A stretch of 64,000 bases of DNA. It comes from Candidatus Adlerbacteria bacterium. GTDB lineage: Bacteria > Patescibacteriota > Minisyncoccia > Phycocordibacterales > SBAW01. Both the position numbers and the translations under genes were made by a program. This document shows positions 4,465 through 62,310 of the stretch, in pieces. The stretch spans positions 445,863 to 509,862 of the forward strand of contig CAVVLG010000002.1 in NCBI GenBank assembly GCA_963749085.1, given 5' to 3'. Each line of letters begins with the position of its first letter. Position 1 is the first letter of the stretch. The notes below the pieces were generated by a model. It was given only the letters and a program-made list of their open reading frames with translations, was not told the DNA's origin and made no database searches.

Positions 4465-4665
4465 TTATGCGCGCGTAACGTTAGTGGCGCTGAGGCCTTT
4501 TGGCCCTTCGACTACGTCAAAAGAAAGCGTATCGCCTTCTTTTAACTCGTCAAACATGACGCCATTGAGCTCCTTGGAGTGGAAGAAGAGGTCCTTCGTC
4601 TCGCCTTCGCGAGCGATGAATCCAAATCCCCTGTCCTTGACGAGCGTTTTGATTGTTCCTGTCAT
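4465..4665 (-). CDS. cspA: Cold-shock protein (CspA family)
   Basis: 66 aa, MTGTIKTLVKDRGFGFIAREGETKDLFFHSKEL... RNP1/RNP2 motifs. Confidence 0.92.
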   Translation of the reverse strand: MTGTIKTLVKDRGFGFIAREGETKDLFFHSKELNGVMFDELKEGDTLSFDVVEGPKGLSATNVTRA

Positions 4666-4758
4666 CTTTTTTTATATTTTCTGTGGGAAACCCGACCCTG
4701 TTTCTTAGTCTTCTAGACCATCTCCACTCTACCACCTAAGGTATTTTATGTCAACCAG

Positions 4759-5767
4759 TTATCCCCTCGTATTTGCCCTTTGGACATTCTGATAGACGAC
4801 TTTTGAAATCTGCGCAATGATGCTCTCAAGCGTCGGCAGGGGTGCCGAGCCCCGCGTCATGACACACAAGAAGATAGGGGTCGTTTGCGTAGACAATGCC
4901 GCAGTCGTGTAGTTCGTGCTCGGTGGTAACGCCGTTGGGCGCGATGCCGACAAGACCGAGCTTATGGGAGACGACGCGTCGAGCTTGCAACCCCCGCCAC
5001 AATTCCTTGCGTAAAACTAACCTGGCTCATCAGTTGAAGGGCTTTTTCAGAATCGTCTCTGCGAGAGATAGGTCGCGTTATACAGTACGCGGAACAGGGT
5101 TGAAATCTGGTGAGCGGTTATAAAGTCGGCATTTGCCAACGTGACGTTATCTTCCGAAGGAATACCGAGGTCGCCGTACACTCGTGCTGAGCGTATCCGG
5201 GTCAATGTTGGCGTCCAAGAGAGCCGTGGCGTTGTTGTCGGAATATTTGATCATATAGCCAAGAAGCTGCTCCACTGTATAGGTGCGTCCTGGCACAATG
5301 GCTTCCGGCGGCGGAATATCCTGCATCTGGTTTAAATCAGTGCTACCTACTGGATAGGTAAGTTCTTTGTTTAAGACACTGGGATTATTTTCGGACTCTT
5401 GATAATAGGCAATGAGTATCGGTATTTTCCCGAGGCTTGAGGGGTAAAATAGTTCATTTCCGTATACGCTTGCCCAAGCGCCGGTGGTAAGATCCGTAAA
5501 ATAAACGGAAGCTTTGCTGATGTCTCCATCGTTTGTGTGAGTATCGATGATACTCTGGATCTCTTTGCCGAGAAGCGTATTTTCGGTATATACATTTGAG
5601 TTATTGATATTGCACGCAAGAAGCGGATCAATAAACTTGTATCCGCTGAGTCGAAGTGACTGCGCAGGTACAGTATAGTCGCGTGCTCCTTTTATAAACC
5701 ATCCCGCTCCAAATCCAGCCGCACCGATGACGACTGCCACTGCCACTAGTAGTACAAGGTTTTTCAT
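4759..5767 (-). pseudogene. Class A beta-lactamase-like serine hydrolase, disrupted by at least 2 frameshifts and an internal stop
   Basis: 206-aa N-terminal ORF has a signal peptide, an SLGK (SxxK) motif and YSDNNATALL (SDN motif). The downstream sequence continues in two other frames (LGIPSEDNVTLANADFITAHQISTLFRVLYNATY...; ...HKLGLVGIAPNGVTTEHELHDCGIVYANDPYLLVCMTRGS), resembling the KTG / C-terminal region. Confidence 0.6.
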
Positions 5768-5772
5768 CCCTT

Positions 5773-6111
5773 TTATTGTGTACCGTTTGATTGCAGTTGC
5801 AGGAGTTCTGAACTATTTGGGTTTGCTTTTAGTCCGGCTTGTAGTATCGCGGTAGCAGCCGCAGGATTGTTATCGTCATAGCGATAGAGGTTATAGAGAT
5901 CGAGGTAGTAATCCGGGACATTCGGATTTATAGCTATTGCCGCTTGATAGCTAGTCACGGCTTTTGCGTAATTGGTGTCAAAGTTTTGATAGAGGTCACC
6001 CAGATTGCCATAGGCAATATAGTTTATGGAAGAAGGTCCTGTTTGCGCCACATAATTCCACGCCGCTATAGCTCCCGCGTAGTCGCCGCCTATCTTTCGG
6101 TCGACGCCCAA
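5773..6111 (-). CDS. TPR-repeat protein (probably TTG start, possibly truncated)
   Basis: Tetratricopeptide-like repeats (AWNY..YGNLGDLY..NYAKAVTSYQAAIAINPN..YYLDLYNLY). Confidence 0.5.
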   Translation of the reverse strand: MGVDRKIGGDYAGAIAAWNYVAQTGPSSINYIAYGNLGDLYQNFDTNYAKAVTSYQAAIAINPNVPDYYLDLYNLYRYDDNNPAAATAILQAGLKANPNSSELLQLQSNGTQ

Positions 6112-6496
6112 CTGTAGCCACAGATCAACGCGGGTTGGCGTTTGCTTAGTTGTGAGATAAGTGTCTCCTCCTGCGTGCGTAGCGCGGCCTGCGCATCGGC
6201 AGGAAGTGAGGAGGAAATCTGTATTGGGCCACTAAGCGACGGCGGAGGCGTTGTGATAACAGCGGTTATCGTGGCACCCGCAGGAAGGGTCGCTGTGATA
6301 CCGTTACCGAGGTATACGGTGGTAGTGGAGCTAGTGCGTTAGTGCTTGTAGATATATTTGATGCCGGAGCCACTGCCGTGTGCGGTCGCAAAAAGAGTAT
6401 ACCGCCTATAAGAGGAGGGCGACAACAACGCCAACTCCCACCCACATATAGTTGTTCTGCATATATAAGTAGTGTACTGAAAAAATAAGAAACACA

Positions 6497-6524
6497 AAAG
6501 CCCCCTCTTTCGAGGGGGCTTTTG
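6497..6524. terminator. Strong rho-independent terminator (aaaagccccctc-tttc-gagggggctttt)
   Basis: Perfect 12-bp stem plus T-run, 3' of the giant minus-strand surface-protein locus. Confidence 0.7.
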
Positions 6525-6594
6525 TTGCCTGCTGCCTGTATTGGCGGGAGGACTTTGGTGTCTAAGCTCGATCAAGACTCCGAGGAATCAGACC

Positions 6595-9500
6595 AGAGGT
6601 TAGCATTCGACTAGAAACCAGTCGACGGGAGACCAGAGACACCGTAACCGTTCGTCCAGTCGTTGCCTGTCTACAGCAGCCGAAGTGGTTGCGTTAGGAG
6701 ACCAGATGAAGTTATCGGCTGTTGAACCGAGACTGGCTGCAACTTGAGCCGCGTACCCATGAGGACCTATGCCCGTCGGATAGGCAGCGTCGCCCTGGAG
6801 CTGTCGAGGTGATGGTCCAGTTGTTCGCAGTAGCGTTCGGCGAAACATTGCCGGTGAGGATGAAGTACATGGTCGTACCTGCACCAATTTCAAGCGGAGA
6901 GTTCGTACCCTGGTTGAAGTACAAGGTCGGGTTTCCGGTGAGCGTAGCCGTGGTGTAGGCCGTGCCTCCACCGCTGGCGGTATCACCGTCAGTTACACCG
7001 AACTGACCGTTGTAGAACCAGGAACATTTGCAAGACCCGTGTCATAAGACGGGGTGTACGCATGAAGCTGAAGGTTGTTTACGCTTGCCGAAGAAGTCGC
7101 GATCGCGATAGCAAGCTGATAGAGACCGACCGAGCCGTTGGAACCAGCAGTGATGCTGAACTCCTTAAGCACCGCATTCGAACCATTCGGATTGGACGTC
7201 GCTGACAGGACCAGCTGCGAGAGTCGGAACAGTCTTGAAGGTGCGGAAGCCTGCGGACGCAGTGCTGCCGGTGCCATTGATGGTCTTGCCGGAGTTTGCA
7301 CCGATTCCTTGTGAGTTGAGGTAGTCAAGCGCTATGAAGCCTCCTTCTTGGCCAGGCTGGCTGGTGCCAATCTGAGCAATGTCGGCCTTCACAACGAGGT
7401 TCGCATCTTGGTTATTCGGCAACTGGACCGGATTGGTAAGCGTCGAGGTCGCGACGGTAGCATTACCCGTGAAGGATGCCGTACCGAGCAGCGTGCCCGG
7501 GCTTATTGCCGTGCCAGTAGTCGTGAAGATGTTACTACCTGCGTAGAGGTAGACCTGCGTCAAGTCAGACGGTGACGAAGATGCCGCGTTGGTGAGCGTG
7601 AGGCCAACCTTCTGAAGATTGACCGGCTCGTTCGTAGCGCGGAACTTGATCACGTTTGCTGTAACACCGGTCGTACCGCCTGCGACAAGGAAGTAGGACG
7701 GTGATGACGGGTCAAGCGAGGCCACGAGAGTCGCGCCGCTAGAAGCCGTCATGCTAGGACCAGTGCCGCCAGCAAGCGTCACAGTAACTGTGCTGCCGGA
7801 GGTTGCACCCGTAGCTGAGAGGCAGAGGCCGCTGAGAACTGGTAGAGAGCGCCTGCAGCCGCAGAGGACGACAGGTTGCACTCAAGATTGAGCGTCGTGA
7901 CGGTGCCTTTCGGTATTGTCAGCGAATTGTCGAGGCTGAAGGTAAGGGCAAGTTCATGCCGCTGGTTATCGAAGTGCGTTGCTGCCGTTATCGAGACGGT
8001 GCTGCGGTGCCAGCAGGACCGCTGCTGCCGTTGAACACGCGAGTACCGGTGTTAAGAGCGGTCGAACCGTTCCACAGCTGGCAAGCACTCAGGTCAGCCT
8101 CAGTACCGCTCCTGCGGTCGACGAGAGTGAGCGGAATAGATGAGAGACGGACATTCTCACCCGATTGCGATGCATCAAGCTGGATGCCAGCGAAGACGAT
8201 ATTGCTGCCGCCTGCGACAATCGTCTGCGAGGTCGGTGACGTCGAGTTGCCGACAGTGAGCGTTGCGGCCTTAACCGTCATCGTATTCATCGAGAAGGTC
8301 CGTCACGCCCGGCGAGATGTTATTGCCAGTCGTTACACCGGTAATGTTTGTCCAGTCGGAAGACGGATTGGTGGATGCGACGATGGTTGCGCCGTTGATG
8401 CCAGTTTGCGCACCAATCTGACCCTCAATGGTGTAGGTGTTGGTTCCTGTCGGGAACGTTGTCGCACCCGAGAAGGTCACAAACTGATAGCGCCAGTGCC
8501 ACAGAGAAGTGCCGAGCGTTGTGACCATTGTTCGTAGTGGCAGTTGCACTAGAAGCACAATCCGCGTTGTACGGACCAGAAATAACTTGGCCGTTCTGGT
8601 TGACAAGCGAGACGTTCGTGAGCGGACAGAGCGGTAGTGCTCGATCGTGAAGTGCACGATGAGTGACTGCACCTGGATAGCCTCACCGGTGAGATTCGTC
8701 TGGAATCCGCCGAGAGGCTGATTGGGGACGTTAATCGCAATGTTCTGCGCACCAACAGATGTTGCATTCTGGATGGTCGAGAACGTACCCGCGGTGACCG
8801 TAACCGTCGAGCCCTGGATCTACGGAGTCGAGTTCGTACCGGAGACGAAGATCGACGCGTGGCGAAGAGGTGCTGCTGTAGCTCGCAGTACCAGCGCCTG
8901 TGGTCGGCGTTATGCCGTAGCCATAGGTGTTGCCGACAAGGTAGATGTCGGTGTTTCGGTAGATGTCGAACTCTGCGTAGGTGTTGGCCGTTACGCTTGC
9001 ACTCAAGGTCACCCTGCACGTAGACGTCAACCGACTGGCCTTCCTGTATGACGATCGGGATCGGGAAGACAGTCGTGTAGTAGCGGCCGGTCGAGTCAAG
9101 TGTCGTCGGGTACGAAGTACCGTTGACAACGGTCACGACATTGGCAAGACCTGAAGCCGAGCCGGACTGATACCACGTTATCGACTTGAAGCTCAGGTTC
9201 TCCTGCGAACCTGCCTGGATGCGGATAGCCGAGAAGCGGTAGCCCGTAGTGCCGATAGGTTGGCTGGAAGCTGAGTTCGGGTCATACGATGACGTGTATA
9301 TCGTTGCCGAGCCGATGAGCGCGGTGTTGTTGAAGGTGTTGCTTGCACCGGTTATCGGGAGCGAGCCCGATACCGTGGAAGCAGTGTTGACTGCCGTCAC
9401 CGCAAACGACGCGATGTCTCCGGAATTGACGGAGCCTGCTGCAGCAACGTTTGCCGCAACCCAGAAGGTCACGGACGTGCCTGCTGGGATGGTTATCGGA

Positions 9501-43735: not shown

Positions 43736-43810
43736 CTGGGCGCCGTAGTCGAGGACGTTAGAACCGTGTTTGAGAGGAGGAATGATACGACGATTTATAT
43801 TCCTGCGTTC
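43736..43810. repeat. 75-bp direct repeat, copy 1 (95% identical to 45078-45152)
   Basis: ctgggcgccgtagtcgaggacgttagaaccgtgtttgagaggaggaatgatacgacgatttatattcctgcgttc vs copy 2, 4 mismatches. Confidence 0.85.
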
Positions 43811-45077: not shown

Positions 45078-45152
45078 CTGGGCGCCGTAGTCGAGGACGT
45101 TAGAACTGTGTTTGAGAGGAAGAATGATACGACGATTTACATTCCTGTGTTC
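45078..45152. repeat. 75-bp direct repeat, copy 2
   Basis: See copy 1; the two copies bracket the M23 peptidase-NUDIX pair. Confidence 0.85.
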
Positions 45153-45847: not shown

Positions 45848-45944
45848 TGCTTGAAATTATATCTTACTTCTTGAGAGCGGCGCCCAGTTCTAATTTTCAC
45901 TAGGGTAGTAAAATCACCCTTGAAAAATAAAGTCCAAAAACCTG

Positions 45945-46017: not shown

Positions 46018-46044
46018 ATACACTGACTCGCACGTTATAGCATT

Positions 46045-47091
46045 TTAGGGGTGAAAAAAGAAGGCGAAACCGATGATGGCGTAGGCGCCGAGGAGTTGTA
46101 CGCCTTCAAGCCAGTTGCTCTCGCCGTCGGCGATAATAAGATTTAGTATGAGCACGGACAGGACGATTGAAACAAGTTCGAAGGTGTTAAAAATAAGGTT
46201 CATTGGTTGATGCAACACCAATCCCGCGAGCACCAAGACGGGCGCTACGACCATTGCTATTTGTGTTGCCGAGCCGATAGCAATCTGAAGTGAAAGATCC
46301 ATACGATTTTTTCGCGCTACAATGACCGCCGATAGATTCTCAGCGGCATTACCAATAATAGCCAGGAAGATAACGCCTACAAAAAGCTCTGACCATCCGA
46401 GCGTGGCAACCAAAGGCTGTATGGAATTCACCAATAACTCGCTTATCCATGCGACTACGAGCGTTGCGACACACAATGTAAGCAGACTGCGCGAGATACT
46501 CCAACGTGGTTCAAACTTTCCTGCCTCCTCCATATAGAGGTGCTTGTGCGTGTGGAGGGAAAAAAAGAGGCTGGCAGCATAGAGTGCTAAAAGTGCGAAC
46601 GACACCCACACGCTCAGATATTCAACGACGCTATTGCTAAGTAGAGGCACGCTTTGCGATAAAATCGCAGGCATGACGAGCGCTATGACGGCGATAAAAA
46701 GCGTCGAGCCACCAATAAGTACGGCAGTCTTGTTGAACATCTGCTTCTCGCGCGACCATCCTCCCGCGAGCATCGAGAGTCCGAGTACCAAAAGCAAATT
46801 GCCGATGATCGAACCGGTGATGGACGCTTTGACCACTTCAATGAGTCCGGCGCGTAGCGCAAAAAAACCGATAATAAGTTCTGTCGCATTGCCAAAGGTT
46901 GCTGAGAGAAGTTCGCCTACGGCAGGCGACGTGCGTGTTGCGAGTTCCTCAGTCGATTCGCCGATGAATTTGGCAAGCGGCACGATGGCGAGCGCACAGA
47001 GAAAAAACACAATGGTTGGCGATACACCAAGCACCTGCGCCACAATGGCGACTGGCACGAAAATAAGCAGGATGAGAAAAAATTTATCCAT
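46045..47091 (-). CDS. Ca2+/H+ antiporter (CaCA family), copy 1
   Basis: Two alpha-repeat signature regions: GNATELIIGFFALRAG and GNAAENLSAVIVARKNRMDLSLQIAIGS; 348 aa. Confidence 0.9.
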   Translation of the reverse strand: MDKFFLILLIFVPVAIVAQVLGVSPTIVFFLCALAIVPLAKFIGESTEELATRTSPAVGELLSATFGNATELIIGFFALRAGLIEVVKASITGSIIGNLLLVLGLSMLAGGWSREKQMFNKTAVLIGGSTLFIAVIALVMPAILSQSVPLLSNSVVEYLSVWVSFALLALYAASLFFSLHTHKHLYMEEAGKFEPRWSISRSLLTLCVATLVVAWISELLVNSIQPLVATLGWSELFVGVIFLAIIGNAAENLSAVIVARKNRMDLSLQIAIGSATQIAMVVAPVLVLAGLVLHQPMNLIFNTFELVSIVLSVLILNLIIADGESNWLEGVQLLGAYAIIGFAFFFHP

Positions 47092-47393
47092 TAGTTCAGG
47101 TTTGAGTGCATTTCAAATACGTGTTGGGTTGGGTTGTGTTCGGCATGAAAGACTGTGGTGTGAATTTTATCGCCTCGCATTTCATAAAGCGGATGGGCAC
47201 TTTTACCTTCGGGATGAAATTCAGTCGCATACCACTTGCCGTCATGCACGCTGTAGAGCGGCTTGTCGGCAGAAGCGGTGTGGTTGAAGCGAGTCGCATA
47301 GACCTGACCTCCCCTCAGTTCATACTGCGGCCGCATAGAGTGAACTTCACCCGCATGACCATAGTGAGCCTGATGAATATACTGGGTATCCAT
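47091..47393 (-). CDS. Small repeat protein (3.5 x 16-aa Y-x-x-R-G-x-x-x-Y-x-T-x-F-H repeats), translationally coupled to the antiporter, copy 1
   Basis: PQYELRGGQVYATRFN / PLYSVHDGKWYATEFH / PLYEMRGDKIHTTVFH; stop overlaps the antiporter start; a paralogous pair exists at 56735-57070. Confidence 0.65.
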   Translation of the reverse strand: MDTQYIHQAHYGHAGEVHSMRPQYELRGGQVYATRFNHTASADKPLYSVHDGKWYATEFHPEGKSAHPLYEMRGDKIHTTVFHAEHNPTQHVFEMHSNLN

Positions 47394-47562
47394 TGTCCAT
47401 ATTTTACACCCAAATAATAGTATGGATCACACTGCGGGGTTAGAACCCCACACATGGACGGTACAAAGCGGGGCTGGAACTTGTCCCCAATAGAAAACGA
47501 CGCAGAATAGCTGGATAAATCGCGACAAAAATTGGAAGCAAGCTCTGAACTTTTTTGGGGGA

Positions 47563-48156
47563 TTACGGGGTCAATATATTGCCAGGAGTCGGCGGCAGAA
47601 GCGGTTGGTTGAGTACATAGATGATACCGTTGCTCGCTTTGTATTCCTCCAGTGCAAACGAGCTATTGACCTCGACTAAGCCGTTGGGCTGGACCTTAAA
47701 GTTGAGCTCGTCACCGGAGAGCGCCTTAACCGAGCCATTGTTGGTGGCATCGATATCAAGTGCCTTGCCGGAAACAATGCTGTACTGGATCAGCCGTTTT
47801 TGCTCGGCGGCGGTCATATTGCTGATAGTACCCGGCTTCAAAAGTGCATATCCTGCGTCGGTTGAAACGAACACTGTATAAGGACCGCGAGCGCCGAGGG
47901 TGGCGCCCACACCCGTGCTGTTGAACAAACTCGTATACGTCGAGACACCGGGAAGGCTTGCCAAAACCTCTGCTATGCTGCTGGAGGTTTGATTCACAAC
48001 GGTCACTTGGTCAGTGGCGCCGGTAGTCGTGGTTGTCTCAGTAGTCGCCTGGGTTGGTGCGGATGTATTTGACTGGTCAATCCACCACCAGATGCCCGCG
48101 ATTACGACGAGGACAAGTACGATGACTACTACCCAAACCCATGTATTATTTTTCAT
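47563..48156 (-). CDS. Fasciclin (FAS1) domain protein, membrane anchored
   Basis: N-terminal TM, Thr-rich linker, FAS1 motifs (YTVFVSTDAGYA...IIYVLNQPLLP). Confidence 0.8.
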   Translation of the reverse strand: MKNNTWVWVVVIVLVLVVIAGIWWWIDQSNTSAPTQATTETTTTTGATDQVTVVNQTSSSIAEVLASLPGVSTYTSLFNSTGVGATLGARGPYTVFVSTDAGYALLKPGTISNMTAAEQKRLIQYSIVSGKALDIDATNNGSVKALSGDELNFKVQPNGLVEVNSSFALEEYKASNGIIYVLNQPLLPPTPGNILTP

Positions 48157-48236
48157 ATATATATTATTTAAATCTTCATCAAACTAACGCACGTAGCTTA
48201 CGACTCTCTTCATGAAAAGCAAGTGAAGATTTGAAG

Positions 48237-49087
48237 TAGAACCAATCTCAAAAATACCGTTGTAGACTAAAGGCACAGGGCGTTACCCGTAATTTGCCTG
48301 CCCATGCCTCTCACCAACGAGCAGTGGAGCGTCATCGCTCCGTTTGTCACACCCCTCAAGCGTTTGGAAACCCGCGGCCGTCCCCGGCAGGACGACCGCA
48401 AGATACTGGAAGGTATCCTCTGGGCACTGAAGACCGGCGCCCAGTGGAAGCACCTGCCGAAAGACTACCCGCCCTACCAGACCTGCCATCGCAGGTTCCA
48501 GCAGTGGGTGGAGAGCGGCGCCTTTGACCGCATCGTCGAAGCCCTGGCCATGGACATGGAATACCGGGGGCGCATCAAGCTCAGGAGCTGCTTTCTCGAT
48601 GCCACCTTCGCGGGGGCAAAAAAGGGGGTCTTGGCGTGGGACCCACGAAGCGTGGGAAAGGCACCAAGATCATGGCGATTGCGGACGAAGGCTCTCTTCC
48701 AGTCGCCGTCTATGTGGCCTCTGCTTCTCCGAGCGAAGTCCGGTTGGTTGAAGACACGCTTGCCCGGCGATTTACCCGACAGAATCCGCTTCGCCTCACG
48801 GCTGACCGAGCATATGATTCCGATCCGCTGGATGGAACGCTCCTGAACAAATACCGCATCAAACTCATTTCACCGCATCGCAGAGGCCGGGTGCGCAGAG
48901 CAACACAGGACGGCAGGGCGCTGCGCTCCTACAAGCGCCGGTGGAAGATTGAGCGGCTGTTCGCGTGGATGCACAACTGGAGAAAGCTCGTGACTCGCTA
49001 CGAATACAAACTGCAGAACTTTGCCGCCTTCGTGAAGCTCGCGTGCATCATGCTATTACTCAAACATTATTTTTGAGACTGGTTCTA
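48237..49087 (+). mobile_element. IS5-family (IS427-group-like) insertion sequence, copy 1, 851 bp
   Basis: 17-bp terminal inverted repeats (TAGAACCAATCTCAAAA / TAGAACCAGTCTCAAAA). Two overlapping transposase ORFs with an A_AAA_AAG slippery site at 48617-48623. 100% identical to the copy at 49937-50787. About 60% GC versus about 50% for the host. Confidence 0.9.
48304..49076 (+). CDS. IS5/IS427-like DDE transposase (orfA-orfB fusion by -1 programmed frameshift)
   Basis: orfA HTH region then orfB ...GPTKRGKGTKIMAI...TADRAYDSD...KRRWKIERLFAWM DDE motifs. Confidence 0.85.
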
Positions 49088-49286
49088 GTCTTAATTTTGT
49101 TGACACATAGCGAAATAAACAACCTGAGACGTGCCCATGGTTGTTTATTTTCAAAACGTCCGACTCAGTGAAGCCTTCAAAAAAATAATGACTTTTCTGC
49201 CGGTGCGGAACATACGGCGGAGTCAGAACTCCGCATACGGGCAGTATACCTCTCGCAAAAGAAGAGGCCGTCTTTTTAGAGGCGGC

Positions 49287-49625
49287 CTAAGAATCGGGAC
49301 TGGAATCAAGTTCATCTAGTTGGGCAAGTTTCCGATATAGCGTCGATCGCCCTATGCCAAGTCTTCGGGCGACTTTGGTCATTTTGCCCTCATAGAACCT
49401 GATTGCGAAGCGAATGATTTTCAGCTCGATTTCTGCCAGAGTATAGATTTCACCCGCCTTATTGATTAACCTTATCCGGTCAACATCGATGTCAGCTTGA
49501 GCGATGTCATCGGGTGCCGGGCGGACTTCGTTCCCGTACGCATTACGCCGAGGTTTTACGCTTGAACTTTTCTTACCTGCTGTCTCGCCTCGCATGGCAA
49601 GTCTAGCGTCTGCTGTTGCACCCAT
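49287..49625 (-). CDS. Fis-family HTH DNA-binding protein (or C-terminal remnant of a sigma-54 activator)
   Basis: C-terminal KMTKVARRLGIGRSTLYRKLAQL; sits in the 849-bp segment between the two IS copies. Confidence 0.6.
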   Translation of the reverse strand: MGATADARLAMRGETAGKKSSSVKPRRNAYGNEVRPAPDDIAQADIDVDRIRLINKAGEIYTLAEIELKIIRFAIRFYEGKMTKVARRLGIGRSTLYRKLAQLDELDSSPDS

Positions 49626-49936
49626 GGCACGTGGTCCTCAAAAGTTATCCGGAATGGATATTACAGCGTATTTATTCAGAAGTCATTAGCTGGGAGCGTG
49701 GGACGATATTGGAACTTTGCTCAATAAAAACCTTATTGCTCCGTCCGACCATTCATACTAAGATACCATTCGGAGTTGCTTGAAAAGCTCGGTTATATGC
49801 CGTGCACCCGATAGACTCGGGTTCTGTAGGCACTCCAGGAGAACAAAGTGAAAAGATGGAACCAGACGACCATTGTATGGCCCATGTGGAGCTATCACGT
49901 AGACGGATACAACGACATCGGATATGGAGAAAAGAC

Positions 49937-50787
49937 TAGAACCAATCTCAAAAATACCGTTGTAGACTAAAGGCACAGGGCGTTACCCGTAATTTGCCTG
50001 CCCATGCCTCTCACCAACGAGCAGTGGAGCGTCATCGCTCCGTTTGTCACACCCCTCAAGCGTTTGGAAACCCGCGGCCGTCCCCGGCAGGACGACCGCA
50101 AGATACTGGAAGGTATCCTCTGGGCACTGAAGACCGGCGCCCAGTGGAAGCACCTGCCGAAAGACTACCCGCCCTACCAGACCTGCCATCGCAGGTTCCA
50201 GCAGTGGGTGGAGAGCGGCGCCTTTGACCGCATCGTCGAAGCCCTGGCCATGGACATGGAATACCGGGGGCGCATCAAGCTCAGGAGCTGCTTTCTCGAT
50301 GCCACCTTCGCGGGGGCAAAAAAGGGGGTCTTGGCGTGGGACCCACGAAGCGTGGGAAAGGCACCAAGATCATGGCGATTGCGGACGAAGGCTCTCTTCC
50401 AGTCGCCGTCTATGTGGCCTCTGCTTCTCCGAGCGAAGTCCGGTTGGTTGAAGACACGCTTGCCCGGCGATTTACCCGACAGAATCCGCTTCGCCTCACG
50501 GCTGACCGAGCATATGATTCCGATCCGCTGGATGGAACGCTCCTGAACAAATACCGCATCAAACTCATTTCACCGCATCGCAGAGGCCGGGTGCGCAGAG
50601 CAACACAGGACGGCAGGGCGCTGCGCTCCTACAAGCGCCGGTGGAAGATTGAGCGGCTGTTCGCGTGGATGCACAACTGGAGAAAGCTCGTGACTCGCTA
50701 CGAATACAAACTGCAGAACTTTGCCGCCTTCGTGAAGCTCGCGTGCATCATGCTATTACTCAAACATTATTTTTGAGACTGGTTCTA
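49937..50787 (+). mobile_element. IS5-family (IS427-group-like) insertion sequence, copy 2 (identical, direct orientation)
   Basis: Same TIRs and ORFs as copy 1. Confidence 0.9.
50004..50776 (+). CDS. IS5/IS427-like DDE transposase (frameshifted orfAB), copy 2
   Basis: Identical to 48304-49076. Confidence 0.85.
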
Positions 50788-50867
50788 ATCTAAGGGTATC
50801 CGTTTCGGAAGAAGTAGCTTTTCTTCGTTGCGTATCTATCACCGCTCAATCAGATCTTTCACATCAA

Positions 50868-51248
50868 ATGAGGATCTACATATCTCTTAAGCCTGAAGGC
50901 AAAGAGAAATGGCCTAACCCAAAAGATCTTCAAAACGCCGCCTCGGTGGTTACGAGGGCTCTGTACTTCCAGAATTTTCAAGAAGAGAGAGCCGAAGCAG
51001 TGCACGACCACATCGTCATTACCATGAAATTGTCGCCGGGCGAGCAATTCTGCGAAAAGGCGATTGCATTAGTTGGCAGAATTATGTATCTGTTCGGGAT
51101 ACAAGACAAAGATGGTCGGCTCGTTGGAAATTTCAACATAAGCCAAACGACTCACATTTTGCGCAACGGTCGTTGGGAAACTTATGCGGACGTGTTGCGT
51201 AAAAAGCTTAGGCTCCAAGGCCCATATATCTATTGTTGGACCAACTAA
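50868..51248 (+). CDS. Hypothetical protein
   Basis: 126-aa ORF followed by a clean terminator. Confidence 0.5.
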   Translation: MRIYISLKPEGKEKWPNPKDLQNAASVVTRALYFQNFQEERAEAVHDHIVITMKLSPGEQFCEKAIALVGRIMYLFGIQDKDGRLVGNFNISQTTHILRNGRWETYADVLRKKLRLQGPYIYCWTN

Positions 51249-51263
51249 CACTTTCTACTCAAG

Positions 51264-51290
51264 AGTAGCTCCACTTCGGTGGAGCTTTTT
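51264..51290. terminator. Rho-independent terminator (gagtagctccac-ttcg-gtggagcttttt)
   Basis: Hairpin plus T-run 16 bp after the stop of 50868-51248. Confidence 0.7.
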
Positions 51291-51465
51291 GTTGGCTTAG
51301 CTGGGAAGATTAGAAATCGAACTTTTAATGACAGATTAGGAGAATGGCTCGAACCTTACCAAATCCTTATTCTTAGGTCTATTTTATAAATCTACTCAAA
51401 ACCAGAGGTTCTAACCGCCAAAAACCTGGCTCAACAAAGCCTTGAAAAATAACGGTTTTTAGGCA

Positions 51466-51551
51466 GGTGCCCAGGAGAGGACTCGAACCTCCATGCCCTT
51501 GCGGGCGCTACCACCTCAAGGTAGTACGTCTACCAGTTTCGCCACCTGGGC
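51466..51551 (-). tRNA. tRNA-Leu (anticodon GAG), type II with long variable arm
   Basis: Reverse complement GCCCAGG tg GCG aaactggtaga CGT a CTACC ttGAGgt GGTAG cgcccgcaagggcat GGAGG ttcgagt CCTCT CCTGGGC a. Confidence 0.85.
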
Positions 51552-54495: not shown

Positions 54496-55686
54496 TTATC
54501 GGATATCCTGTAGCGCGAAAGAATACTTAAGTCCGAGCGCCATCACAACCGCCAGTACCAAAAAACTCCATTGTAGTGAGAACAGTTGGAGCGAGATCGA
54601 TGCGACTACGGCCGCGGCGACATACGTTGCAGGACGTGCGACACGGAAAAGGCTGATGGTGTCGGAGAAGGAGCTGTCGACGTGTTTGAAGAAATAGCTC
54701 TCCGTTGCTATCTCAGTGCAGCTTGCTCCAACGCGGCTGACAAACAAGACCACAGTCCAGAAGAGAAATACAGGTGTCGTAAGAAACGGCATGAGAGCAA
54801 CCATAAGCGCCATGAGCACAAAGCCGACTATCATTATTTCTTTTTCGTCGTATCGCATATCCGCAATTCTGCCAAGCGGCAGCTCAAGCAGTAGGAACGG
54901 CAGAAGCATGATGGCAAACATTATCCCTATCTGCGCCCACGTAAACCCAACGTAGCGGAATAAATAGAGCGGTGTATAGATGACCATCCACGCGTAGAAA
55001 AAGCGTAGAAGGAATTGCGCCGCGAATACGTTATATAGATTGGGACGCTTAAAAACGTATGCGAGGGATTCCCGCAAGGAACGGTGATTGTACGAAGCAT
55101 CATGGAATGTTCGCAGCCGCGAAACAATGACCGCCAGTCCTATCAGTAAAAAGGCCACTGACACGAGGTATACTTTCCAAAACGCATCGGTAGAATCGAG
55201 TAGCAGTCCAGCTATGAGCGGACATACTACCTGCGCGATATTGATCATGGTGAGAAAAAGCCCGCGCATCCCGCCAGTGACTCGCTCATCCTTTATGAAT
55301 TTCTCGAGAAAAATGTCGAGGTTGAGGTAAATCACCGGCGAGATAGCGAGAAAGACAGTGAAGAAAAACAATACCGCCATAGAGCCGTGCGCGAACGCGA
55401 GACCCACAAGCGATAGGGCTTCGAGCAGGATGAAAAATGATATCAGCCTGTAATTTCCGATCCTTTTTAAGATGCGGGAGAAATACGCAAAGAAAAGGAG
55501 ACTTATAAGCGAGCCTATGATGTAAAGTATGCTGATTCCGCTGTCGCTGAGATACTGGCTTAAAAAAGAGGAGTTTATGTAGATGATTAGGAAGTAGTGA
55601 AAAGAGACGAACAGATTGGCAATATATACCGCGCTTACATCCGAGTCCTTACGCCTCCACAAAAAATCAGCCATTGACGTGCGCAT
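54496..55686 (-). CDS. MFS-type transporter
   Basis: 396 aa, 12 predicted TM helices, MFS-like loop motifs. Confidence 0.65.
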   Translation of the reverse strand: MRTSMADFLWRRKDSDVSAVYIANLFVSFHYFLIIYINSSFLSQYLSDSGISILYIIGSLISLLFFAYFSRILKRIGNYRLISFFILLEALSLVGLAFAHGSMAVLFFFTVFLAISPVIYLNLDIFLEKFIKDERVTGGMRGLFLTMINIAQVVCPLIAGLLLDSTDAFWKVYLVSVAFLLIGLAVIVSRLRTFHDASYNHRSLRESLAYVFKRPNLYNVFAAQFLLRFFYAWMVIYTPLYLFRYVGFTWAQIGIMFAIMLLPFLLLELPLGRIADMRYDEKEIMIVGFVLMALMVALMPFLTTPVFLFWTVVLFVSRVGASCTEIATESYFFKHVDSSFSDTISLFRVARPATYVAAAVVASISLQLFSLQWSFLVLAVVMALGLKYSFALQDIR

Positions 55687-55688
55687 GT

Positions 55689-56735
55689 TTAGGGATGAAA
55701 AAAGAAGGCGATGCCGATGATCGCGTAGGAGCCGAGGAGCTGCACGCCTTCAAGCCAATTGCTCTCGCCGTCGGCGATTATGAGGTTGACGATAAGCACG
55801 GAGAGAACGATCGAAACGAGTTCGAAGATATTGAATATAAGGTTCATCGGCTGGTGGATTACCAATCCCGCGAGCACCAACACCGGCGCCACGACCATCG
55901 CTATCTGTGTTGCAGAGCCCATGGCGATTTGGAGCGAGAGATCCATGCGATTTTTACGCGCTACGATAACTGCAGAGAGATTCTCCGCGGCATTGCCGAT
56001 GATGGCCAAGAAAATAACGCCGACGAACAGCTCAGACCATCCCAGTGTGGCAACCAGCGGTTGAATGGAATTAACCAATAATTCGCTTACCCATGCGACT
56101 ACGAGCGTCGCGGCACACAAAGTAAGAAGACTGCGTGAGACGCTCCAGCGCGGTTCATACTTTCCCGCTTCTTCCAGATATAGATGCTTGTGGGTATGCA
56201 AAGAGAAAAAGAGGGTGGCGCCGTAGAGCACGAGGAGCGCTACTGATACCCACAGACTCATGTCTTCGACAATGCCGCCCGTGAGAAGCGGAGCGGTCTG
56301 CGACAAAATGGCTGGCATCACAAGTGCTATAGCGGCGATAAAAAGGGTTGAACCGCTGGCAAGCACGGCGGTTTTGTTGAACGTCTGCTTCTCGCGCGAC
56401 CAACCGCCTGCGAGCATTGAGAGCCCGAGCACCAAAAGCAAATTACCGATAATGGAGCCAGTAATCGATGCCTTGACCACTTCTATAAGCCCTGCGCGCA
56501 GGGCAAAAAAACCGATAATAAGCTCAGTCGCGTTACCGAACGTCGCTGAAAGAAGCCCGCCTACGGCGGGCGATGTACGTGTCGCCAGTTCCTCAGTTGA
56601 TTCCCCGATGAATTTGGCGAGCGGCACTATGGCGAGCGCGCAGAGAAAAAATATAATAGTGGGCGATATGCCAAGAGCCTGCGCTGCGATGGCGACGGGC
56701 ACGAACACCAGCAGGATGAGAAAAAATTTATCCAT
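55689..56735 (-). CDS. Ca2+/H+ antiporter (CaCA family), copy 2
   Basis: About 85% aa identity to copy 1, same alpha-repeat motifs; DNA differences concentrated at third codon positions. Confidence 0.9.
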   Translation of the reverse strand: MDKFFLILLVFVPVAIAAQALGISPTIIFFLCALAIVPLAKFIGESTEELATRTSPAVGGLLSATFGNATELIIGFFALRAGLIEVVKASITGSIIGNLLLVLGLSMLAGGWSREKQTFNKTAVLASGSTLFIAAIALVMPAILSQTAPLLTGGIVEDMSLWVSVALLVLYGATLFFSLHTHKHLYLEEAGKYEPRWSVSRSLLTLCAATLVVAWVSELLVNSIQPLVATLGWSELFVGVIFLAIIGNAAENLSAVIVARKNRMDLSLQIAMGSATQIAMVVAPVLVLAGLVIHQPMNLIFNIFELVSIVLSVLIVNLIIADGESNWLEGVQLLGSYAIIGIAFFFHP

Positions 56736-57070
56736 TAGTGCAGATTTGCCCTCACTTCAAATGAGTGCTGGGTCGGATTGTAATCGGGATGAAAGGTAGT
56801 TGTGTGGATTTTATCGCCCCGCATCTCGTAAAGCGCATGCGGCGATTTTCCTCCTGGATGGAATTCCGTCGCGTACCACTTGCCGTCGCGCACGGTGTAG
56901 AGCGGCTTGTCGGCGGGAGCCTCGCGATTGAAGCGGGTCGCATACACCTGACCTCCCCGCAGCTCATACTGAGGCCGGAGTGAGTGCTCCCCGCCCGCAT
57001 GGCCATATTCAGCCTGATGAATGTATTGGATATCCATAGCTAAAACTCTAACATTTAAGAGGTTTTTCAA
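56735..57070 (-). CDS. Small Y-x-x-R-G...T-x-F-H repeat protein, copy 2, coupled to antiporter copy 2
   Basis: PQYELRGGQVYATRFN / PLYTVRDGKWYATEFHP / ALYEMRGDKIHTTTFHP repeats. Confidence 0.65.
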   Translation of the reverse strand: MKNLLNVRVLAMDIQYIHQAEYGHAGGEHSLRPQYELRGGQVYATRFNREAPADKPLYTVRDGKWYATEFHPGGKSPHALYEMRGDKIHTTTFHPDYNPTQHSFEVRANLH

Positions 57071-57177: not shown

Positions 57178-58509
57178 ATGGAAGCACATATAGCAGAAGG
57201 TTTGGAGCAGATGGGCGTAGCCGCTCCGCAGGAGAAAGCAGCAGTGCAAATTAAATATTGCCTCTATGCTCGAAAGAGCACCGAGGACGATGAGCATCAA
57301 GCGCTCTCCATTGATAGTCAAATCAAGGAGATGACCACGCTGGCGGTGAGAGAGAAATTAGACGTAGTCGAAGTGCGGTCGGAAAAACACTCCGCCAAGG
57401 CCGCTGGGCAGCGTCCGGTGTTTCGGCAGCTGCTCGCTGATCTGAGGACAGGTGTATTTAACGGCATACTCACCTGGGCACCCGACAGGTTGTCGCGCAA
57501 CGGCGGCGATCTTGGCGTAGTAGTCGATCTCATGGATCAGAAGTGTTTGGCAGAGATACGGACGTACACGCAGAAGTTCACCAATAACCCCAATGAGAAA
57601 TTTCTGCTCATGATATTGGGTAGCCAGGCTAAACTCGAGAACGACAACAAGAGCCTGAACATAAAACGCGGGCTCAAAGCTCGCGCCGAGATGGGGCTGT
57701 GGCCTGGCATAGCGCCTACGGGCTACCTCAATGACAAGAGGAGTGACCACAAGTGCGAAGTGCTGGTGGACCCCCTGCGTTCCTCAGTGGTGAAGCAAAT
57801 ATTCGAGAAGGTCGGACGCGACAGGTTGAGCGGAAGAAAAGTCTATGCGTGGTTGCGGGGTGATGTCCGCTTCACCACACGGTATGGCAAACCGCTGAGT
57901 TTGAGCAACATCTACAATATGCTGAGAAATCCCTTCTACTGCGGCATGTACGAGTTCCCCCGCAGGTCGGGACAGTGGTACACCGGCAAACACACGCCCC
58001 TCATCACCAAGGAGCTGTTCCAGTTGGCGCAGGAGAAACTGGCGGAGGAGAATAGGCCACGGAAGAAGTTCCAGGACTTCACCTTCACCCGTCTCATGAC
58101 CTGCGGGTATTGCGGGTCAGGTATCACAGCCCAGGAGAAGGCCAAGAACCTCAAAGACGGCTCGGTGCGTTGGTACATTTACTACAGCTGCAACAAGCAC
58201 AAAGATCACCACTGCAAGAATCCATATATCAGGGAGGACAATCTCATATCCCTCCTCCTAGAGATATTGAACCAAGTATCCATAGATGAGATAGGGGCAC
58301 GCCATCTCATCGAGCGAGAGGTGGCGCGGTACAACAAACTCAGAACCGCTATGGGTTATACCGACAAAGACACGGCGAAGGATATGGACACCAGAAAATA
58401 TGCTAAGTATCTCCTTCAGCATGGGACGCCTCAGGAGAAACGCGAACTGCTTGAACACCTCAGAAACAGGATTGTGATGAAGGACAGGAAAATATCCATA
58501 TCAGATTAG
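57178..58509 (+). CDS. Large serine recombinase (resolvase catalytic domain + recombinase domain + zinc ribbon)
   Basis: [19 protein letters not shown] (catalytic Ser), recombinase domain, [10 protein letters not shown]...CNKHKDHHC zinc-ribbon; 443 aa. Confidence 0.88.
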
Positions 58510-59296: not shown

Positions 59297-59369
59297 CTGA
59301 CTGCTGTGCACGCTGCAGGACTCGAACCTGCGACCTTCCCCGTGTAAAGGGGTTGCTCTACCAACTGAG
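59297..59369 (-). tRNA. tRNA-Val (anticodon TAC)
   Basis: Reverse complement GCACGCT ta GCTC agttggtag GAGC a ACCCC ttTACac GGGGA aggtc GCAGG ttcgagt CCTGC AGCGTGC a. Confidence 0.85.
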
Positions 59370-59912
59370 CTAAGCGTGCGTGCCCCTCCACGGTATCGCA
59401 CCGTACCAAGCGAGGCAACGCAAGGGCCGTTTGGCCCATCAGCGACCTCTTGATTCGATGCCTCACGGTAGGGTTGTAAATGAGACATAATGAGACACTA
59501 CTCGCGCATATCTGTAACTGTCTCATTTACGGCATTCCGGCAAGCAGAATAAGGGGATTCGAGGATTTAGGTGCTGTCTCAGGAGCTTTTCGAGCGCGCC
59601 GCACGGTATCGCACCAGAATCTTACAAATCTGACAGGGGGTCAGGGTTCAAAATGCTACAAAAGTGACACGAGAACGATACGTTCAGCTGTAACTTTTCG
59701 GGATCAAAATGCCACGAATGCGACAGTCGAAATGGCACACTTTGGCACACAGATACGGTGTGTGCCGAACGTATGATTTTCACCCCTTTCTACTGCCCGA
59801 CTCAAGGCAGACCCTTGCTCGTTTAACGAAAATGGCATAGCACACTGTTCGGGGAGAGTGTGCCCTTTCTTAAACGCTAAAAACGCCGATCGTGAGAAAT
59901 CGCTAGGTGTAG

Positions 59913-60984: not shown

Positions 60985-62310
60985 ATGGAAACAGCAACGA
61001 TTCAAGGTGGTTTTGGGGCGGCAGTCGCTCCCGCAGAGGCCGTGTCTCTTAAGTACTGTCTGTACGCGAGAAAAAGCACGGAATCGGAAGAACAGCAGGT
61101 GTTGAGCATCGATAGCCAGATAAAGGAGATGCTAGCCTTAGCTGAGAAAGAGAAGTTAGAGATCGTAGAGATCAAGCGCGAAAGCCATTCCGCCAAAGAA
61201 GCCGGAGCGCGTCCGGTCTTCAACGAGATTGTGGACGAGATACGCACTGGGAAGTTCAACGGGATATTAACGTGGGCACCCGATCGTATATCACGCAATG
61301 CCGGAGACTTGGGACGCATAGTGGACTTGATGGATAGTAAGCACCTCGTCGACATCCGCACCTATGGCCAGCGCTTCGGCAACAATCCGAATGAGAAGTT
61401 TCTTCTGATGATTCTCGGGAGCCAAGCGAAGCTCGAGAACGACAACAAGCGCATTAACGTAAAGCGCGGATTGAAGGCGAGAGCGGAGATGGGGTTGTTC
61501 CCGTGCACCGCGCCGACGGGATACTTCAACGACAACCGAAGTGACCATCGCTGCGAGATTGTCATCGATCCGATTCGCGCGCCCTTGATGAAGCAGATGT
61601 TCGAGAAGGTTGGTCAGGAACGGTGGAGCGGGAGAAAGACCTACTTGTGGCTCAAGAACGATGCTCGATTTACGAGCAAGAGCGGCAAGGCCTTGAGCTT
61701 GAGCAATGTATACAACTTGCTTCGCAATCCCTTCTTCTGCGGCGTGTTCGAGTATCCAAGAGGCAGTGGGAGCTGGTATACCGGCAAGCATCAGTCGCTC
61801 ATCTCACAGGAGCTGTTCCAAGCAGTCCAAGAAAAGCTCGCCGAGGAAACGCGCAAGAAAACCGCCCGCAACGACTTCACCTTCACCAAGCTCATGACCT
61901 GCGGTCTCTGCGGCTCCGGCATCACGGCTCAGGAGAAATCGAAAGCGCTCAAGGACGGTTCGACCAACTGGTACATCTATTACTCCTGCACCAAGAGCCG
62001 AGACAAATCCTGCAAGAACCCATTTGTACGTGAGGACTACCTTGTCACACAACTTCTCGGTATCATCGACCAAATCAGTATCGACGAGATTGGGGCACGC
62101 TCACTGATTGAACGTGAGGTTGCGAGATACAACACGCTGCGTGCGGAGGTGGAGGGTGTGCCGGAAACCCTTAAAGCCAATGAAATGGACTTCAGAAAGT
62201 ATGCGAAGTATCTTCTCAAGAACGGGAGTCCAACTGAGCAACGAGAATTGCTTGAGCACTTGCGGAACCGACTTGTGCTGAAAGACCGACAAATCGCACT
62301 CGAGAGCTAA
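60985..62310 (+). CDS. Large serine recombinase, paralog 2
   Basis: [19 protein letters not shown]..., [10 protein letters not shown]...CTKSRDKSC zinc ribbon; about 70% identical to 57178-58509. Confidence 0.88.

Follow-up and report, generated by a model that had tools for sequence, protein, structure and literature searches.

Within the window, by which we mean the whole stretch of 64 kb that was analysed, two copies of one insertion sequence (IS) lie in direct orientation on either side of a spacer that carries a small gene for a helix-turn-helix (HTH) protein. The features of the locus are given below with window coordinates, strand and description; where applicable, the counterpart in copy 2 follows in brackets.

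47563..48156, minus: fasciclin-domain protein to the left of the IS pair, with a membrane anchor at its N-terminus; 80 bp separate its start codon from the upstream IS copy 1
48237..49087, plus: IS copy 1, 851 bp when the TA at either end is counted; the IS itself has 847 bp (48239-49085)
48237..48256, plus: left terminal inverted repeat of copy 1, TAGAACCAATCTCAAAAATA (49937-49956)
48304..48624, plus: orfA part of the transposase, with DUF4096 N-terminal domain and first catalytic Asp, D99 (50004-50324)
48618..48624, plus: slippery heptamer A_AAA_AAG, in register, encoding the invariant AKKG motif (50318-50324)
48624..49076, plus: orfB part of the transposase in the -1 frame, with D168, E217 and DDE_Tnp_1 (50324-50776)
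48627..48671, plus: stem-loop, probable frameshift stimulator, beginning 2 nt 3′ of the slippery site
49068..49087, minus: right terminal inverted repeat of copy 1, TAGAACCAGTCTCAAAAATA, 1 mismatch versus the left one (50768-50787)
49088..49936, no strand: spacer between the IS copies, 849 bp, host-like GC of 47.5%
49287..49625, minus: 112-aa stand-alone NtrC/ZraR/Fis-type HTH gene (Pfam HTH_8, E = 6e-11)
49937..50787, plus: IS copy 2, same sequence as copy 1, direct orientation
50868..51248, plus: right neighbour, 126-aa hypothetical protein; IS copy 2 ends 80 bp upstream (50788-50867)
51267-51286: terminator-like hairpin after the 126-aa gene
51466..51551, minus: tRNA-Leu(GAG), conserved edge of the variable segment 47430-51465

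The IS pair and its surroundings

Over 851 bp the two copies show 0 mismatches (100% identity), and the identity stops exactly at 48237-49087 and 49937-50787 with 0 extra matching bases on either side. Self-BLAST of the window recovered the same pair, so that the lengths, the direct orientation and the distance given in the first-pass annotation are all borne out. A search for other copies revealed no further IS copy or solo end in the 64 kb. In the protein record, 2 contigs carry the exact orfB product and a further contig (12,459 bp) has a form of it that is cut at residue 114, which points to more copies or more assemblies. The terminal inverted repeat, TAGAACCA[A/G]TCTCAAAAATA, is matched at 19 of 20 positions, or at 17 of 18 if the terminal TA is left out, in agreement with the 17-bp repeats noted earlier; the repeats sit at the exact ends of the repeated unit, where 0 matches were expected by chance. 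All four IS junctions read TA, and both copies are intergenic.

The IS has a GC content of 57.7%, compared with 49.5% for the window and 47.5% for the spacer. At third codon positions (GC3), orfA reaches 81% and orfB 65%, whereas the neighbouring genes range from 47 to 61%. The element is thus compositionally foreign, and of the earlier statement that its GC is about 60% and above that of the host, the excess is correct but not the figure. A higher-GC donor, which had also been proposed, could not be named, since the best relatives of the transposase are only 59-66% identical and spread over many phyla.

The variable segment, which adjoins tRNA-Leu, is part of a wider plasticity zone with a segmental duplication and two large serine recombinases, the latter located 7-11 kb from the IS block. 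The closest syntenic relative, and the only one found by a CaCA-based scan, is the MAG REEB120. There, the HTH, fasciclin and 126-aa genes are missing, and a class II ribonucleotide reductase cluster takes the place of the whole segment from tRNA-Leu to a 100-aa gene; therefore REEB120 offers no empty site. The 112-aa gene was absent from all fetched related loci. An integrative island at tRNA-Leu was ruled out, as the 3′ end of the tRNA has no direct repeat, and a phage origin of the neighbours was rejected because matches to PHROGs were only marginal.

Homologues of the CaCA protein are named Patescibacteria, Paceibacterota or Kaiserbacteria, and the contig measures 518,058 bp, which confirms the small-genome host as a Paceibacterota (CPR) bacterium. 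Patescibacteria genomes of about 0.5 Mb are generally considered poor in mobile DNA. The statement of the first-pass annotation that IS elements are uncommon in such genomes has to be qualified, given the plasticity zone described here and a transposase of 58% identity annotated in a MAG of Saccharimonadales (also CPR); on the IS frequency in CPR genomes, the literature gave nothing directly usable.

Transposase, frameshift signals and relatives

In frame 0, the orfA reading frame continues beyond the slippery site to 48846. By a predicted -1 shift, orfA (start 48304) and orfB (stop 49076) would be joined to a 257-aa fused protein, which in an alignment with 17 uninterrupted homologues is colinear with them and shows no gap at the slippery site. 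D99, D168, E217 and AKKG are invariant columns of this alignment. The fused product is matched by Pfam DUF4096 (E = 4.2e-27) and DDE_Tnp_1 (E = 1.8e-15) and by NCBIfam NF033580 (transpos_IS5_3), the latter with 222 bits versus a cut-off of 110 and covering positions 5-258 of 258 of the model. The stem-loop downstream of the heptamer has a predicted minimum free energy (MFE) of -29.8 kcal/mol (z = -3.6), and 0 of 200 shuffled sequences fold as well. The motif GCN-AAA-AAG-G occurs somewhere in the locus in 31 of 80 related loci. Among 15 loci examined, its position was checked in 7, and there it is the equivalent one. Scores and architecture agree with the earlier description of an IS5/IS427-like element, and the register of the heptamer and the colinearity of the fusion with intact homologues argue for the frameshifted transposase that had been read from A_AAA_AAG.

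Accordingly to this anatomy, the DDE transposase would be made only upon a -1 ribosome slip at the heptamer, aided by the downstream hairpin, and the slip would link the DNA-binding DUF4096 domain and D99 of orfA to D168 and E217 of orfB. As the frameshift would be needed for the transposase, its supply would be limited. The transposase would target TA, with a preference for the context aC|TA|Gt, and TA would be duplicated. We infer that the IS is active.

Judged by its sequence, the element is a complete IS5-family IS of IS427-group architecture with 847 bp and 18-nt imperfect inverted repeats; its probable placement in the IS427 rather than the IS1031 group is based on architecture and the 2-bp TA. 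A search of 5.8 billion proteins gave a best identity of 59% for the transposase, and one of JGI metagenomes gave 66%; the element is therefore a new IS within the databases searched. Its nearest named relative is ISDds9 (51% identity). A plasmid DNA search gave no match beyond 145 nt at 75%, and plasmid proteins were at most 55% identical to the transposase, by which a known plasmid-borne IS was ruled out. The exact IS end had no match in GTDB representative genomes, and looking up the exact proteins (HTH protein, orfA, orfB, truncated orfB, 126-aa protein) brought up no record.

The termini TA-GAAsCyATCTCAwAA are common to 38 related metagenome elements, where the TA is present by construction, as the search accepted only elements with a TA 7 nt ahead of the conserved core on either end. 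No empty site was found, and the reading of TA as a 2-bp duplication rather than as the tip of the IS follows what is known of the family (PMC3281130). In the related half-sites, base -1 is C or T in 75 of 76 cases and base -2 is A in 47 of 76.

The HTH_8 gene in the spacer

The presence of a 112-aa protein with an HTH of the Fis/NtrC-C-terminal type in the spacer, as previously described, was confirmed by a match to HTH_8 (PF02954) with 42.3 bits versus a gathering score of 22. Residues 1-47 are predicted to be disordered, with a beta-hairpin and three helices after them (residues 52-107). The AF2 model has a pLDDT of 84-97 over residues 51-100, and its best PDB matches are the DNA-binding domains of ZraR, NtrC4, Fis and NtrC1. 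The GC3 of the gene is host-like (47%). The closest homologues, with 45-51% identity, are C-termini of NtrC-family sigma-54 activators, the next best homologue is 51% identical over 71% of the length, and the 90% cluster of the protein has a single member among 15 billion proteins. A Fis orthologue was ruled out, because the Fis equivalog model NF001659 gave 22.5 bits versus a cut-off of 99, with a match limited to residues 60-103, and because the N-terminus is predicted to be disordered. A sigma-54 enhancer-binding protein was ruled out as well, as HTH_8 occurs alone and no AAA+ domain is present.

The first-pass annotation had considered the gene a possible truncated sigma-54-activator remnant, and one may ask whether it is the leftover of a full-length enhancer-binding protein gene cut in place by IS copy 2. 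The homology to activator C-termini and the structural matches to ZraR and NtrC4 fit such an origin, as does the fact that two seemingly stand-alone homologues proved to belong to split activator genes, of which they form the final fragment. However, neither Sigma54_activat nor AAA_lid was detected, even at E <= 5, in stop-free pieces of the 311 bp between the start codon and IS copy 2 or beyond this copy, and tblastn with ten activator fragments or homologues matched the window only at 49281-49601. Furthermore, the gene has its own GAGGA 9 nt upstream of the ATG and an in-frame stop 4 codons above it. With its own Shine-Dalgarno sequence, start codon and in-frame stop, and with no AAA+ remnant, the gene was not truncated in place by these IS copies, and we regard the in-place cut as barely tenable; what stands of the earlier proposal is the homology to the C-terminal linker and HTH of activators.

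Origin of the pair and comparison with known systems

In our best explanation, to which we assign a probability of roughly 60%, the pair represents two separate insertions by recent local hopping, with the HTH_8 gene as a resident between them. One IS copy would recently have transposed to a nearby intergenic TA site, 849 bp away, and the two insertions would thereby flank a small regulator gene in the variable segment next to tRNA-Leu; the look of a composite transposon is then accidental. As the copies are identical, the duplication is recent, in line with the first-pass annotation. Independent insertion is the most likely order of events, favoured by the composition, which is host-like in the spacer but not in the IS; furthermore, closely spaced IS pairs normally come about when selfish IS copies transpose by chance, and such pairs are unstable (PMC1676026). 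Against it stand the left junction of copy 1, which has G at -1, a base found in 0 of 76 related half-sites, and the inner flanks, which when joined read AAGAC-TA-GTCTT, a perfect consensus target that is also predicted by an origin from a cointegrate or circle. It is possible, though unlikely in our view, that IS, spacer and IS came as one piece with the HTH gene as mobilised cargo, the piece being a composite transposon, a cointegrate or a translocatable unit; in one variant, a small circle of one IS and the 849-bp spacer would have been integrated into the chromosome, through either replicative transposition or recombination with an IS copy already there. Direct IS repeats bracketing inserted DNA are the signature of a cointegrate, exactly such cointegrates have been seen for IS1248 of the IS427 group (PMC3281130), and the outer flanks, gaaG-TA-Atct, fit the clade target more poorly than the joined inner ones. 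Yet the four half-sites are the same under either pairing, so that the likelihoods from target preference are equal. The inner-flank palindrome gtctt...aagac was rejected as proof of a circle, since positions -1 and -2 are explained by the target preference of the clade and only the remaining three, -3 to -5, need chance (about 1 in 64, noticed post hoc), which leaves a weak pointer. Target-site duplications were inspected at the four junctions but rejected as a test, because with TA at all of them they cannot separate two insertions from block arrival. The two readings differ in their empty sites, which would read GAAGATTTGAAGTAGTCTTAATTT (gaagTAgtctt) and AAAAGACTAATCTAAGGG (agacTAatcta) for independent insertions around a resident HTH gene, and GAAGATTTGAAGTAATCTAAGGG (gaagTAatcta) for arrival as a unit. 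The HTH gene has no close homologue and is missing at the syntenic locus of REEB120, as would suit mobilised cargo, but so are the fasciclin and 126-aa genes, which lie outside the block; therefore the absence says little, and REEB120 likewise provides no empty-site evidence that the HTH gene predated the IS. Arrival as a block is also opposed by the host-like GC and GC3 of the spacer and its gene and by the missing replication function of an 851-bp circle. The IS-spacer-IS unit was not found at another locus or genome among 15 billion proteins, the GTDB representatives and the fetched related loci. As the databases contain no second instance of the spacer gene, nothing shows movement as a composite transposon: the resemblance noted earlier stands in its structure, i.e. 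two copies of one IS around passenger DNA, but not in its movement as a unit.

The arrangement left flank-IS-spacer-IS-right flank rests on the deposited assembly, and it might be an artefact in which the IS is a repeat node and the path through it is wrong, with a single chromosomal IS and a spacer from another locus, a circle or another strain. An exact repeat of 851 bp exceeds short-read length, and a Logan contig of run ERR12036785 (L001) that carries the fasciclin flank ends exactly 30 nt inside the left end of the IS, which marks the IS end as a branching node in that data set. This break is the behaviour of a k=31 graph at a repeat, and the contig gives independent support for the left junction of copy 1. 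The HTH and 126-aa proteins are not recorded from Logan, while the fasciclin and CaCA proteins are, but Logan contigs are short and such an absence is therefore weak evidence. On the other side, there are four distinct junction sequences, and the spacer is bordered by a right IS end and, opposite to it, by a left IS end, so that at least two direct IS copies around the spacer, or a circle, were present in the sample. The 518-kb contig suggests a long-read or curated assembly, and the composition of the spacer matches the host. We therefore consider an artefact improbable. A decidedly improbable idea is that an IS427-type element captured the HTH segment and moves circles of IS plus cargo, the block being a cointegrate or translocatable unit resolved in place and the HTH protein perhaps a recombination accessory. 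If true, the protein might assist the IS or the two large serine recombinases, and the locus would give a first indication that an IS mobilises genes, and possibly that DNA is exchanged with the host bacterium, in the genome of an ultra-small episymbiont.

The analysis establishes the host, the anatomy and family of the IS, its intact catalytic residues and frameshift signals, and the termini and target preference of the clade. The element is a previously uncatalogued IS whose mechanism would otherwise be as known for the IS427 group; as there is no mechanistic departure from this group, its value lies in cataloguing and genome dynamics, not in a new concept. It documents an apparently recently active, compositionally foreign IS in a Patescibacteria genome of about 0.5 Mb. 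Its two exact repeats are a ready substrate for deletion or mobilisation of the regulator gene, and the block could in principle move as a unit or equally collapse to a single IS via the 851-bp direct repeats; they also represent a practical trap for assemblers and binners. The clade-wide termini, together with the target preference, could aid the annotation of hundreds of similar metagenomic elements without names.

Functional IS427-group elements trapped in Paracoccus, a group with IS1248, ISPaes1, ISPbe2 and ISPze1, measure 832-865 bp (847-851 bp here) and have inverted repeats of 13-21 bp (imperfect, 18 nt here). All those listed make 2-bp duplications except ISPha1 (4 bp), all but one have two overlapping ORFs with a frameshift motif, and the complete DDE motif is found in the fusion protein only (PMC3281130). 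The element described here is alike in its 2-bp flanking repeat, two overlapping ORFs, -1 motif, DDE motif complete only in the predicted fusion, and multicopy state. It differs in its transposase, whose best matches in the databases searched reach only 59-66% identity, and in its host, a CPR bacterium with a genome of about 0.5 Mb. With an IS5-family clade without a name from soil, sediment and peat metagenomes and MAGs (loci L084-L163), which includes copies from Leptospira weilii and Deinococcus plasmids such as ISDds9, it shares the termini, the size (837-925 bp), the position of the frameshift at AKKG (motif in 31 of 80 loci), the TA flanks and the aC|TA|Gt preference, but the amino-acid identity is only 44-66% and many genes of the clade are fused and unframeshifted. 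The 112-aa protein resembles the DNA-binding domains of sigma-54 activators (ZraR 1OJL, NtrC4 3E7L/4FTH, NtrC1 4L5E) and Fis in its HTH_8 domain, in the conserved motif ARRLGIGRSTLYRKL and, in the model, in a three-helix fold (rmsd 0.8-1.2 Å over about 41-44 residues). Unlike the activators, it has neither a receiver nor an AAA+ domain, and unlike Fis, it lacks the N-terminal arm and helix A, its first ~47 residues being predicted to be disordered. Composite transposons with direct IS, such as Tn9 with IS1, and IS-bordered cointegrates likewise consist of an identical direct IS pair around a short gene without a function in transposition. Compared with these, however, the block has no selectable cargo and no distinctive outer target duplication, it was seen at no other locus, and the inside ends are intact, so that each IS could move alone.

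The locus and the two IS copies

Homologues of the neighbouring Ca2+/H+ exchanger were named Patescibacteria, Paceibacterota or Kaiserbacteria, and the source contig comprises 518,058 bp, in line with the small streamlined host genome assumed in the first-pass annotation. The nearest syntenic relative was the MAG REEB120 (exchanger 78% identical). Both share the order RluD, L19, tRNA-Leu, a variable segment, a 100-aa gene, the exchanger and tRNA-His. The segment and the features in it are as follows:

Window, 47430-51465: variable segment with fasciclin gene, IS copy 1, HTH gene, IS copy 2 and 126-aa gene
Window, 48237-49087: IS copy 1
Window, 49088-49936: spacer, 849 bp
Window, 49287-49625, minus strand: HTH gene, 112-aa ORF with HTH_8 match (42 bits, cut-off 22)
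Window, 49937-50787: IS copy 2
REEB120 (loci L002/L004), 4605-9467: variable segment with 166-aa ORF, class II ribonucleotide reductase, Cob_adeno_trans, DUF4430 and ECF component

None of the REEB120 segment genes (ribonucleotide reductase cluster) occurs at this position in the window; the stretch that runs from tRNA-Leu to the 100-aa gene is a replacement hotspot. A search for an att-like copy of the tRNA-Leu end found none, and an integrative island at this tRNA was rejected.

Self-comparison of the window confirmed the annotated pair of 851-bp direct copies, identical at all bases and 849 bp apart, with identity stopping precisely at their boundaries. Both are intergenic; copy 1 is located 80 bp upstream of the fasciclin start and copy 2 311 bp upstream of the HTH gene, its right end being 80 bp upstream of the 126-aa gene. 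The ends form an imperfect inverted repeat, TAGAACCA[A/G]TCTCAAAAATA, matched at 19/20 positions and found in the window at the four IS ends only (chance expectation: none). The IS proper thus spans 48239-49085 (847 bp) with TA on either flank. These TA flanks are presumably the target duplication, a reading that follows the family, as the searches turned up no empty site. The GC content of the repeat is 57.7% (rounded up to about 60% in the first-pass annotation), higher than that of the window (49.5%) and the spacer (47.5%). GC3 reaches 81% in orfA and 65% in orfB versus 47-61% in neighbouring genes, so that the claimed foreign composition holds.

The exchanger (348 aa) and the adjoining 100-aa hypothetical gene are duplicated (46040-47393 and 55683-57037; ~9.6 kb apart, 80% nucleotide and 90% protein identity), the copy at 46045 being the syntenic one beside tRNA-His as in REEB120. 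Two paralogous large serine recombinases with Resolvase, Recombinase and Zn_ribbon_recom domains (57178-58509 and 60985-62310, both plus strand; 66% nucleotide identity) enclose tRNA-Val (59306-59379), the first abutting the duplicated exchanger block; this region may be an integrated element or remains of one. Also detected were an intergenic 75-bp direct repeat (43736-43810 and 45078-45152; 94.7% identity, ~1.3 kb apart), a 23S rRNA gene that is cut by the window start, leaving its 5' part (1-395, minus strand), and the 13-nt motif CCTTGAAAAATAA just downstream of tRNA-His (45918-45930) and tRNA-Leu (51440-51452), a possible processing or terminator signal common to both.

Transposase, frameshift and relatives

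The transposase is encoded by two overlapping ORFs, orfA and orfB. Frame 0 starts with ATG at 48304 and reads through GC-A_AAA_AAG-G (48618-48624), and a -1 slip at A_AAA_AAG enters the orfB frame with its stop at 49076, yielding a 257-aa protein. This fusion matched Pfam DUF4096 and DDE_Tnp_1 and, end to end, NCBIfam NF033580 (IS5 family transposase; 222 bits, cut-off 110). In its alignment with 17 uninterrupted homologues the orfA-orfB junction was gap-free, and D99, D168, E217 and the AKKG peptide that the slippery site specifies were invariant. Of the catalytic residues, D99 is located in orfA and D168 and E217 in orfB; therefore, a catalytically complete enzyme requires the frameshift. 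A stable stem-loop beginning 2 nt past the heptamer (MFE -29.8 kcal/mol, z = -3.6, 0/200 shuffles as good) is predicted as the probable frameshift stimulator. With the fusion colinear to uninterrupted homologues, the frameshifted transposase of the first-pass annotation stands, and the repeat is a complete IS5-family element.

Among 5.8 billion proteins, the closest full-length relatives showed 59% identity and came from Anaerolineales, Terriglobales, Acidobacteriota, Bacteroidota and one Saccharimonadales MAG. The top JGI metagenome transposase was 66% identical, and the top plasmid transposases, copies from Leptospira weilii and Deinococcus, 51-55%. No near DNA match was found in GTDB representative genomes or plasmids, and the IS is a new element inside a large unnamed clade. 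Of the proposed recent gain from a higher-GC donor, recency and foreign composition were retained; the best relatives, 59-66% identical and from many phyla, point to no donor. The recency of the duplication is borne out by identity at all 851 bp.

In 80 related metagenome loci, a terminus search demanding a TA 7 nt ahead of the conserved core at each end yielded 38 elements with nearly the same termini as here (TA-GAAsCyATCTCAwAA, the TA being given by search construction). Directly before TA, their 76 half-sites have C (57), T (18) or A (1) and never G, and at -2 A is present in 47/76, from which aC-TA-Gt follows as preferred target. At the left junction of copy 1 (48233-48238), G directly precedes TA; either the target was unusual or the base changed afterwards. 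The motif GCN-AAA-AAG-G was present in 31 of the 80 loci, and at the equivalent place in 7 of 15 loci checked for position.

The bracketed HTH gene

The HTH protein scored 22.5 bits against the Fis equivalog, below the cut-off of 99, and matched no full-length activator model. In an AF2 model (41-sequence alignment) residues 1-47 are disordered, followed by a short beta-hairpin and three helices (residues 52-107; pLDDT 84-97 over 51-100). In the PDB, the fold best matched ZraR, NtrC4, Fis and NtrC1 in their DNA-binding domains (41-44 residues, rmsd ~1 A); the Foldseek E-values were weak, none <0.001, as can be expected of such a small domain. The nearest sequences were C-terminal parts of NtrC-family activators (45-51% identity), the similarity extending into the linker preceding the HTH, and its 90% cluster, in a set of 15 billion proteins, contains this protein alone. 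An in-frame stop precedes the ATG of the ORF by 4 codons, GAGGA is located 9 nt upstream, and a hairpin with T-tract can be seen by eye after the stop codon. All frames of the spacer and of the DNA on the far side of copy 2 were free of AAA+ or lid remnants, and tblastn of ten activator fragments/homologues against the whole window matched the HTH ORF only. In-place truncation by the IS copies was thus not supported; of the truncated sigma-54-activator remnant suggested before, the homology to an activator C-terminus holds. The protein is read as a free-standing derivative of the C-terminal domain of an activator.

Two seemingly stand-alone homologues on long contigs were the last fragment of split activator genes (L164, 3524-4276; L165, 2811-4312), with many fragmented genes at both loci. 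Short HTH_8 database proteins can thus be ends of sigma-54 activator genes frameshift-split in error-prone assemblies, which calls for caution when counting them. A possible terminator in the spacer, where copy 1 faces the 3' end of the HTH gene, is a hairpin with a 14-nt loop and a perfect A/T-rich stem of 12 bp (AAATAAACAACC / GGTTGTTTATTT; 49113-49150).

Origin of the pair and comparison with the IS427 group

Half-sites at the four IS junctions
Copy 1 left: gaaG-TA
Copy 1 right: TA-Gtctt
Copy 2 left: aagaC-TA
Copy 2 right: TA-Atcta

Target-site duplications had been proposed as a check, and TA at all four junctions fits both pairings, so that they cannot tell two insertions from arrival as a block. 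As either pairing draws on one set of four half-sites, the target preference of the clade cannot discriminate either. The favoured origin (probability about 0.6) is that a selfish IS inserted twice, independently, at intergenic TA sites close to each other, because the spacer composition is host-like, the unit is absent elsewhere and closely spaced IS pairs are mostly chance products that do not last (PMC1676026). Arrival of IS-spacer-IS as a unit of cointegrate or circle origin is a rather doubtful alternative: the joined inner flanks give AAGAC-TA-GTCTT, the perfect consensus site such an origin would leave, and IS1248 of the IS427 group makes cointegrates that carry an IS copy at each border, in direct orientation (PMC3281130), but target preference accounts for palindrome positions -1 and -2, and the three remaining positions, spotted post hoc, have a chance of ~1/64. 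With the unit found nowhere else and TA at all junctions, the 'composite transposon' is reduced to a resemblance. A mis-join in the assembly is unlikely, since the four distinct junctions imply that the sample contains at least two genuine spacer-flanking IS ends. The left junction is also present on an independent Logan contig (ERR12036785) that ends 30 nt inside the IS, the behaviour expected at a true repeat. The linear order of flanks, copies and spacer is provisional, as given by the deposited assembly.

The pair points to IS activity in the recent past of a CPR genome and is a substrate for deletion or mobilisation of a regulator gene. Functional IS427-group members of the IS5 family have 832-865 bp, 13-21-bp inverted repeats, 2-bp direct repeats in all but one listed, and two overlapping ORFs with a frameshift motif in all but ISPha1, a natural mutant that has one ORF and a 4-bp repeat; the DDE motif is complete in the fusion protein only (PMC3281130). 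The IS described here shares this architecture, and the IS5/IS427-like assignment holds: it is a new IS427-type element of the IS5 family in a Paceibacterota genome, with the ordinary mechanics of its group.
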